Assembly: GCF_056746865.1 (NCBI RefSeq)
Contig: NZ_CM163382.1
DNA length: 64,000 nucleotides
Direction: 5' to 3' (one strand)
Positions 13,390 through 14,216 of the stretch are shown in pieces. The position numbers and the translations under genes are program-made. Position 1 is the stretch's first letter, and every line of letters begins with the position of its first letter. Below the pieces are notes generated by a model. The model was not told the origin of the DNA and did not search any database. It worked only from the letters and a program-made list of their open reading frames with translations.

Positions 13390-13423
13390 TAAAAAAAGGC
13401 CCCTGTTGAAATTGCAGGGGCCT
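13390..13423 (-). terminator. Rho-independent terminator downstream of cutC (also expected 3' end of MicL)
   Basis: On the minus strand: stem aggcccctg...caggggcct followed by a U7 tract. Confidence 0.7.
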
Positions 13424-13697
13424 GGTACGAGCAAGCATCATATTGGGCGACATGATGCAACGGTAAAAATCATTTGGCCTGATGGCGTTCAATGATTCCT
13501 TTCATTTCAGCAACCGCCGCCCCGTCTACGACATAACGCGAATACTCGTCCGCGTGTGCATCTGATGACATAGACAATCCTTGATTACGATAACGCATCG
13601 GTGAGGCTTGCCACGCTCCCGCGGAGCTATGGACTTCCAGCACTCCGGCATCGAGGAAGTGGTGCAGGTTTTCTGCACGGACTCCTGCTCCGGCCAT
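13390..13697 (-). ncRNA. micL: Candidate MicL (RyeF) sigma-E-dependent sRNA embedded in the cutC 3' region
   Basis: Perfect sigma-E -35 (GGAACTT, minus strand, plus coordinates 13725-13731) inside cutC, TCCAA-like -10 about 17 nt downstream, terminator at 13390-13423; matches the published MicL arrangement. Exact ends not verifiable here. Confidence 0.45.
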
Positions 13698-14216
13698 AAT
13701 GATTGGAGCATCACGATGGGCAATAAGTTCCATAATTTTTGATAAACCTTGCAGTGCGTCTGATTTTTGCCCTGATGTCAGCACCCGGGCAATGCCCAAT
13801 TCCGCAAGATTATTGAGTGTATTTAGAGGGTTAGCGCACATATCAAAGGCGCGATGAAAAGTCACTGCCAGCGGACCGGCAGCAGCCATTATTTTTTCCA
13901 TTCGTGGCATATCGACATTCCCGTCAACATCGAGAACGCCCGTCACCAGTCCAGGAAAACCTAATTCGCGGACCGTGCGCACATCCTCAAGAATGGCGGC
14001 AAACTCACCGTCGCTGTAGCAAAAATCACCACCGCGTGGGCGAATTATCGGATGCACAGGGATCGTCACCCGCTGGCGCACGGATTTCAGTACACCCAAC
14101 GACGGCGTTAAGCCCCCCTCTTTTGGGGCTGCGCATAATTCAACTCTGTCTGCGCCGTTTTGCTGCGCCGTTAGTGCACATTCCATGCTGTAACAGCAAA
14201 TTTCCAGTAATGCCAT
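13470..14216 (-). CDS. cutC: Copper homeostasis protein CutC (248 aa)
   Basis: ORF 13470..14216; [28 protein letters not shown]... Confidence 0.95.

Follow-up and report, generated by a model that had tools for sequence, protein, structure and literature searches.

[quoted passage not shown] MicL was characterised in 2014 by Guo et al. (PMC4102768); the feature is already known and the window holds nothing new. Its position is that expected for micL, since it covers the cutC 3' end and the cutC 3' UTR on the same strand as cutC. When the whole window was scanned, the Rfam model RF02654 (MicL) matched at 13391..13698(-) with 370.3 bits against a gathering score of 56 (E = 9e-112), from model position 1 to 308 of 308 and without truncation. 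Gapless alignment places the MG1655 RefSeq ncRNA micL (b4717) at 13391..13697. The first-pass annotation, made from the letters of the sequence, had recognised a MicL/RyeF arrangement and proposed alignment with the annotated micL coordinates as a check; the full-length RF02654 match, the mapping of b4717, the coordinates of PMC4102768 and a promoter constraint seen across 44 species all bear this out. The source species of the window is E. coli, with the gene order torZ-torY-micL/cutC-yecM, then argS, and the flanks are as in MG1655: torZ and torY downstream, yecM and the divergent argS upstream. A 1-kb query round micL/cutC was present in 5425 of 5426 complete E. coli genomes, many of them 100% identical to it and with annotated cutC and yecM. 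Promoter, MicL-S (the processed form) and terminator are 100% identical to those of K-12 MG1655. Only 3 substitutions separate MG1655 from the window, all in the coding-derived part of MicL: 13572 is synonymous, 13558 gives Ala220 in the window CutC for Glu in K-12, and 13532 gives Val229 for Ile in K-12. None of them falls in the promoter, MicL-S, the seed or another functional element. Two non-canonical pairs are flagged by the Rfam alignment near these three positions.

Other RNA features were found in the same window. C0465 RNA has a full-length Rfam match at 27689..27766 (+), with 111.6 bits against a gathering score of 40, and three tRNA genes recognised by the Rfam tRNA model are clustered at 45991..46289 (-). 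ES036 (CssrF) has two matches of 43 nt, at 9413..9455 (+) and 56175..56216 (+), with 45.5 and 42.9 bits against a gathering score of 37.6, and Escherichia sp. MOD1-EC7003 carries a further copy, scoring 63 bits, just downstream of micL. Such multiple short copies suggest that ES036 is a dispersed repeat rather than a single sRNA gene.

The host gene, cutC, occupies 13470..14216 (-), with 248 codons in 747 nt and a TGA stop codon at 13472..13470 (-), as given by the ORF list and by the annotated cutC of E. coli/MG1655. Within it are the micL promoter and the sequence for MicL nt 1-228. The sigma-E -35 element GGAACTT (13731..13725, minus strand) consists of the third base of codon 162, Glu163 (GAA) and Leu164 (CTT). 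It is followed by a spacer of 17 nt (13724..13708, minus strand; codons 165-170) and by the -10 element TCCAA (13707..13703, minus strand), made of the third base of codon 170, Pro171 (CCA) and the first base of Ile172, so that both elements lie within codons 162-172. The first-pass annotation had placed GGAACTT correctly at 13725-13731, although the motif it called a hexamer is a heptamer, and its TCCAA-like -10 about 17 nt downstream proved to be TCCAA after exactly 17 nt. Directly upstream of the -35 element, the A/T-rich stretch TTTATCAAAAATTAT (13732..13746, minus strand) is a possible UP-like element; the rybB and micA promoters harbor similar A/T tracts at the matching position.

The bare GGAACTT heptamer is not informative, being present at chance frequency (7 copies in the 64-kb window versus 6.2 expected). 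The composite motif GGAACTT-N15-17-TCNAA occurs once in the window, at this site, versus 0.03 expected, with a match in 3 of 100 shuffles; this count and the conservation of the motif at synonymous sites, described below, speak against the chance match that had been named as one outcome that would refute the annotation. A consensus scan of the window for sigma-70 promoters did not report the micL promoter, which is of a different type. In K-12, the sigma-E dependence of MicL was established by tiling array, Northern blot and GFP fusion: a minimal fusion covering -65..+20 of the micL promoter is sigma-E-inducible, and promoter point mutations nearly abolish MicL (PMC4102768). More recently, a micL-lacZ fusion was found to behave as a sigma-E target, with NsrR as a damper of sigma-E-dependent micL transcription (PMC12249550).

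Two published sets of mutations bear on this promoter. The historical cutC copper-sensitivity alleles were located at -67 and between -10 and -35, and correspond in the old numbering to nt 146 (K49R) and nt 197 (R66H) (PMC4102768). With the old cutC ORF start taken as Met103, K49R falls on A13765, at -67 from 13698, and R66H on G13714, inside the promoter spacer; the two fit -67 and the spacer only if +1 is 13698. A PmicL double mutant, '-10C-T/-35A-G', has also been published, and its changes are not uniquely assignable to bases from the text of PMC4102768 alone. A13728G (GAA to GAG) is the only synonymous A-to-G change in the -35 element, and TCCAA itself allows no synonymous C-to-T change.

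The MicL transcription start, +1 = T, is at 13698 (-) according to the start of the Rfam match and to PMC4102768, and at A13697 in RefSeq, which leaves an ambiguity of 1 nt in the 5' end; neither is the start near 13695 proposed in the first-pass annotation. The primary transcript of 308 nt covers 13391..13698 (-), in agreement with RF02654, RefSeq b4717 and PMC4102768. The published description places the start of MicL 226 nt ahead of the stop codon and that of MicL-S at the last base of this codon, and finds the 308-nt RNA resistant to TEX (PMC4102768). Transferred to the window, this geometry gives +1 = 13698 and MicL-S = 13470..13391, for RNAs of exactly 308 and 80 nt. Of the 747-nt ORF, the final 229 nt (31%, counting the stop codon) are shared with MicL. 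The double duty that had been attributed to the 3' half of cutC thus holds as a dual role, but the part concerned is the 3' third, with the promoter beginning at codon 162 of 248. What the coding sequence contributes is the promoter plus 228 nt of leader, which is cut away; the seed and the Hfq/terminator module are in the 3' UTR.

The RNase E processing site, UG|A, is within the stop codon (13470..13471, minus strand; position from PMC4102768). RNase E cleaves MicL in vitro at a position set by two downstream stem-loops (bioRxiv 10.1101/341578). It is these hairpins, and not the local sequence, that guide the enzyme, which may act in a ternary complex with Hfq (10.1101/341578). MicL-S can also be obtained by processing of the cutC mRNA (PMC4102768). 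This 80-nt processed, Hfq-bound and active form (13391..13470, minus strand) comprises the final base of the stop codon and the entire cutC 3' UTR, and co-immunoprecipitation of MicL with Hfq has been reported (PMC4102768). MicL-S folds into two hairpins (-28.8 kcal/mol, z = -5.2). The first, stem-loop A (MicL-S nt 13-36; 13435..13458, minus strand, from the fold), sets the RNase E cleavage position (10.1101/341578). The second, stem-loop B, is a Rho-independent terminator with a U7 tail (13391..13423, minus strand) that ends both the cutC mRNA and MicL. It begins 47 nt past the cutC stop codon and consists of a 9-bp G+C-rich stem (13423..13415 with 13405..13397), a 9-nt loop and seven U at 13397..13391; with a fold of -17.7 kcal/mol (z = -4.3; 0 of 200 shuffles as good), it is indeed the strong terminator that had been noticed past the cutC stop. 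Its U-tail is presumed to be the Hfq-binding 3' end of MicL. A consensus terminator scan of the window did not report the micL/cutC terminator because its 9-nt loop exceeds the loop limit of 3-8 nt, and direct folding was used in place of the scan. This limit is a blind spot of the scan, relevant for other 3' UTR sRNAs.

The lpp target was compared with MicL-S using the lpp sequence of MG1655, the gene being about 200 kb away and outside the window. When the RNAduplex query was restricted to the unstructured (single-stranded) part of MicL-S, the seed UGCUCGUACCAG (MicL-S +38..+49; 13433..13422, minus strand) was found to pair with lpp codons 6-10 (CDS +16..+28). The duplex has an energy of -17.9 kcal/mol, one bulged U and a perfect 7-mer core, GUACCAG/CUGGUAC. 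These positions are those published with compensatory mutants in PMC4102768. RNAduplex with the entire MicL-S returned a sprawling 77-nt duplex that opens the terminator, which was dismissed as not meaningful. Compared with dinucleotide shuffles, the MicL-S/lpp duplex is moderately better (z about -2.9 to -3.2), and 14 of 2000 shuffles were as good as the extended duplex; such complementarity agrees with lpp as the target but is not, alone, proof of it. The proof is provided by compensatory mutagenesis (PMC4102768) and by the MicL-lpp chimeras recovered in RIL-seq (PMC5145812). Across genera, the seed varies only by a C-to-U change at +42, which turns a G-C pair into a G-U pair.

Conservation was followed over 56 cutC loci, with one genome per species and a codon alignment, of which 44 from Enterobacteriaceae entered the promoter comparison; the frameshifted C. 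amalonaticus AUH_CA_2023_1 locus is outside these 44. Among the 43 other Enterobacteriaceae loci, identity of MicL-S to that of E. coli is 88-100% in 41, and 76% and 80% in Franconibacter and Siccibacter. By comparison, cutC DNA is 63-96% identical in these loci and its third positions 36-92%; where cutC DNA identity is 63-80%, that of MicL-S is 76-100%. These values point to stronger purifying selection on the 3' UTR than on the coding sequence, the pattern looked for in this class of sRNA. Over 25 distinct sequences, both stem-loop A and the terminator keep all their pairs (100% of cells). Where only one side of a pair has changed, the change is to or from G-U, and Franconibacter and Siccibacter have compensatory changes on both sides of two terminator pairs. 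Submitted to the Rfam MicL model, all 19 Enterobacteriaceae loci exceeded the threshold and Morganella did not; these cross-species scores were given little independent weight because much of their value reflects coding similarity. Outside Enterobacteriaceae, the MicL-S 3' UTR had no counterpart in the compared loci. Promoter and MicL-S co-occur in more Enterobacteriaceae genera than PMC4102768 lists, namely Trabulsiella, Pseudocitrobacter, Lelliottia, Leclercia, Kluyvera, Pluralibacter, Kosakonia, Superficieibacter, Silvania, Franconibacter and Siccibacter, and both are absent from the representatives of Morganellaceae, Hafniaceae and Budviciaceae; this is incremental detail.

The relation of the RNA to its host ORF varies within the family. 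Only Escherichia, Citrobacter and Salmonella have the stop codon within the RNase E site; in the other genera, among them Trabulsiella, Lelliottia, Kluyvera and Kosakonia, the ORF ends up to about 20 nt before the conserved UUUUUACCG. A cleavage site that coincides with the stop codon is thus a lineage-specific trait. Three assemblies, Leclercia NCTC13032, C. amalonaticus AUH (AUH_CA_2023_1) and Kluyvera YDC799, carry a frameshift in cutC. Each of them retains an intact MicL-S, and the Leclercia and Kluyvera assemblies also keep an intact promoter. These frameshifts are either long-read sequencing errors or real pseudogenes that have retained micL.

A first question raised by this architecture is whether the full-length 308-nt MicL is the functional unit, its coding-derived 5' part having a role at the RNA level. 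Candidate roles are CsrA binding, a conserved structure or a 5' end that masks the seed. MicL nt 3-15 are base-paired to the seed region (13684..13696 with 13423..13435, minus strand) in the minimum-energy fold as well as in the Rfam consensus, this pairing forms in 89-99% of the cells of a 28-species comparison, and CsrA is reported to bind the long form better than MicL-S, with a possible modest antagonism of MicL (PMC10729762). However, two third-codon columns of the 5'-end/seed helix are unpaired, and uncompensated, in 13 and 7 of the 28 species, the other positions of the helix being held constant by the seed itself and by the protein motif IMAGAG. The 5'-end/seed pairing was rejected as a selected feature since its wobble columns break the pairing without compensation. 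As for the Rfam structure of the long form, its internal helices are paired in only 33-78% of cells, and double-sided changes affect 19 pairs versus 17-20 in controls slid by 1-3 columns; a conserved long-form structure was thus also rejected, there being no covariation above the slid controls apart from the terminator. Third-position entropy is 1.30 in the MicL coding part versus 1.26 in upstream cutC. In these comparisons, neither entropy nor covariation revealed RNA-level selection on the 228-nt coding-derived leader. Experimentally, MicL-S alone represses fully (PMC4102768) and 5' deletions are without effect on processing (10.1101/341578). We therefore consider it very unlikely that the full-length RNA is the functional unit; the preferred reading remains that of a leader removed from an active 80-nt MicL-S.

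A second possibility is suggested by the 5' end itself. An in-frame AUG of cutC (Met174, 13697..13695) follows the 5' end after 1 nt if that end is U13698 and after 0 nt if it is A13697, and MicL could in principle also act as a leaderless or near-leaderless mRNA for a 75-residue C-terminal fragment of CutC. If so, MicL would be a dual-function RNA, an idea for which the literature search found no paper. Conservation is no test of this reading, as the AUG lies within the universally conserved IMAGA motif of CutC, and a C-terminal fragment of the TIM barrel is unlikely to be stable or useful. Such translation is most unlikely.

The evidence that micL has its own promoter comes from the comparison of the 44 Enterobacteriaceae loci. 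GGAACT-N17-TCCAA is kept in 43 of them, down to 62% CutC identity, the sole exception being C. amalonaticus ku-bf3 with TGAACT (codon ATT for Ile instead of ATG for Met). Within the -35 element, GAACT is invariant in 44 of 44 loci and the leading G (13731) is found in 43, even though it is the third base of codon 162, whose residue varies among M, L, I, R, K, T and A. Glu163 is encoded by GAA in all 44 loci, whereas seven other conserved Glu columns mix GAA and GAG. The -10 element TCCAA is likewise invariant in 44 of 44: Pro171 is always CCA, although three or four codons are in use at each of six other conserved Pro columns, and T13707 is kept under a residue 170 that is A, T or V. Only 10 of the 248 third positions in cutC are invariant, and 3 of these are in the promoter elements (Fisher p = 4.6e-4, a value not corrected for phylogenetic non-independence). 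The 5-codon window of lowest third-position entropy in cutC is 13742..13728. By contrast, the spacer is fixed in length only, its sequence and the amino acids it encodes varying freely (entropy up to 1.8 bits). Because synonymous and amino-acid-variable positions are kept while comparable codons elsewhere vary, conservation of the motif is not explained by the CutC protein. In Morganella, Edwardsiella, Limnobaculum and three non-proteobacterial homologues the promoter motif is absent, GAG or CAG replacing GAA and CCG replacing CCA. The motif vanishes exactly where the MicL-S 3' UTR vanishes.

C. amalonaticus deserves a separate mention. The frameshifted AUH_CA_2023_1 locus has the same Ile residue as ku-bf3 and also lacks the motif, and no other Enterobacteriaceae locus compared is without it; MicL-S is intact in both, and GGAACTT is present in a third 'C. 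amalonaticus' (S646).

It follows that a cutC without an internal promoter, in which GGAACTT/TCCAA would be a chance or protein-imposed match, the RNA would come solely from processing of the yecM-cutC mRNA and the hairpin would be the cutC terminator only, is extremely unlikely and is already refuted for K-12 by the literature: the chance frequency of GGAACTT alone, the conserved E-L and P-I residues that partly impose the motif and the release of MicL-S from cutC mRNA (PMC4102768) speak for it, but G13731, GAA, T13707 and CCA are fixed where residues are synonymous or variable and comparable cutC codons vary, the motif is lost exactly with the MicL-S 3' UTR, and the inducible -65..+20 fusion, the TEX-resistant 308-nt RNA and the promoter mutants (PMC4102768) all attest to an internal start.

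With the internal promoter as the preferred reading, the pathway is expected to be that of K-12, where sigma-E dependence, cleavage, Hfq binding and repression are established for a sequence identical in all functional elements. Envelope stress or entry into stationary phase would cause sigma-E polymerase to initiate at 13698(-) from the ORF-internal promoter, and transcription would run through the last 76 cutC codons and stop at the shared terminator (13423..13391). The 3' UTR would fold as two adjacent hairpins, and RNase E, placed by these two 3' hairpins, would cut in the stop codon to give the 80-nt MicL-S (13470..13391), which Hfq would bind and stabilise. MicL-S +38..+49, within a longer and partly complementary region, would then pair with codons 6-10 of the lpp mRNA, leading to a block of translation followed by mRNA decay. 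A lower flux of Lpp, an outer-membrane lipoprotein and the most abundant envelope protein, would in turn lower sigma-E activity and close a feedback loop. Initiation, read-through with termination, and folding of the 3' UTR are supported here by the sequence and were shown experimentally in K-12; RNase E cleavage, pairing of Hfq-bound MicL-S with lpp and the feedback are taken from the literature (PMC4102768; 10.1101/341578). The DNA itself shows every element to be present, intact and conserved beyond coding needs, with hairpins maintained and a seed complementary to lpp. What makes cutC mutants copper-sensitive is the loss of MicL and not of CutC, so that the phenotype that gave cutC its name belongs to the sRNA and not to the protein (PMC4102768). 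MicL is a classic example of a regulatory RNA encoded within the gene for a protein, and one whose promoter constrains the synonymous codons of its host.

All tested features match MicL/RyeF as described (RF02654, b4717, PMC4102768), namely the position in cutC upstream of torY, the promoter, the 308- and 80-nt forms, stem-loop A, the seed and the terminator. RybB and MicA are the other two sigma-E-dependent Hfq sRNAs of E. coli, and like MicL they lower the synthesis of abundant outer-membrane proteins (PMC4102768). Their promoters, taken from MG1655 as a comparison set, share with that of micL the form xGAACTy, about 16 nt, TCnnA, with A/T-rich upstream DNA. A number of differences can be noted. 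RybB and MicA are encoded by free-standing intergenic genes and have no longer precursor, whereas MicL is encoded inside a coding sequence and needs cleavage. Their seeds are at the 5' end and serve many targets, whereas MicL carries an internal seed beside the terminator and has lpp as its single reported target. Finally, the spacer is 16 nt in rybB and micA and 17 nt in micL, and the distance from -10 to +1 is 6 nt in the former and 4 nt (T13698) or 5 nt (A13697) in the latter. The longer spacer and the shorter -10-to-+1 distance of micL offset each other, so that the distance from -35 to the start is equal within one base.

The sRNAs derived from 3' UTRs fall into two types: 'type I' sRNAs, such as DapZ of Salmonella, have their own internal promoter, and 'type II' sRNAs, such as CpxQ, arise by processing only. 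Like MicL, both types reuse the terminator of the host gene as an Hfq-binding 3' end, and in both the 3' UTR is more conserved than the coding sequence. Unlike either type, MicL combines an ORF-internal promoter with RNase E cleavage (10.1101/341578) and can also be cut from the cutC mRNA (PMC4102768).
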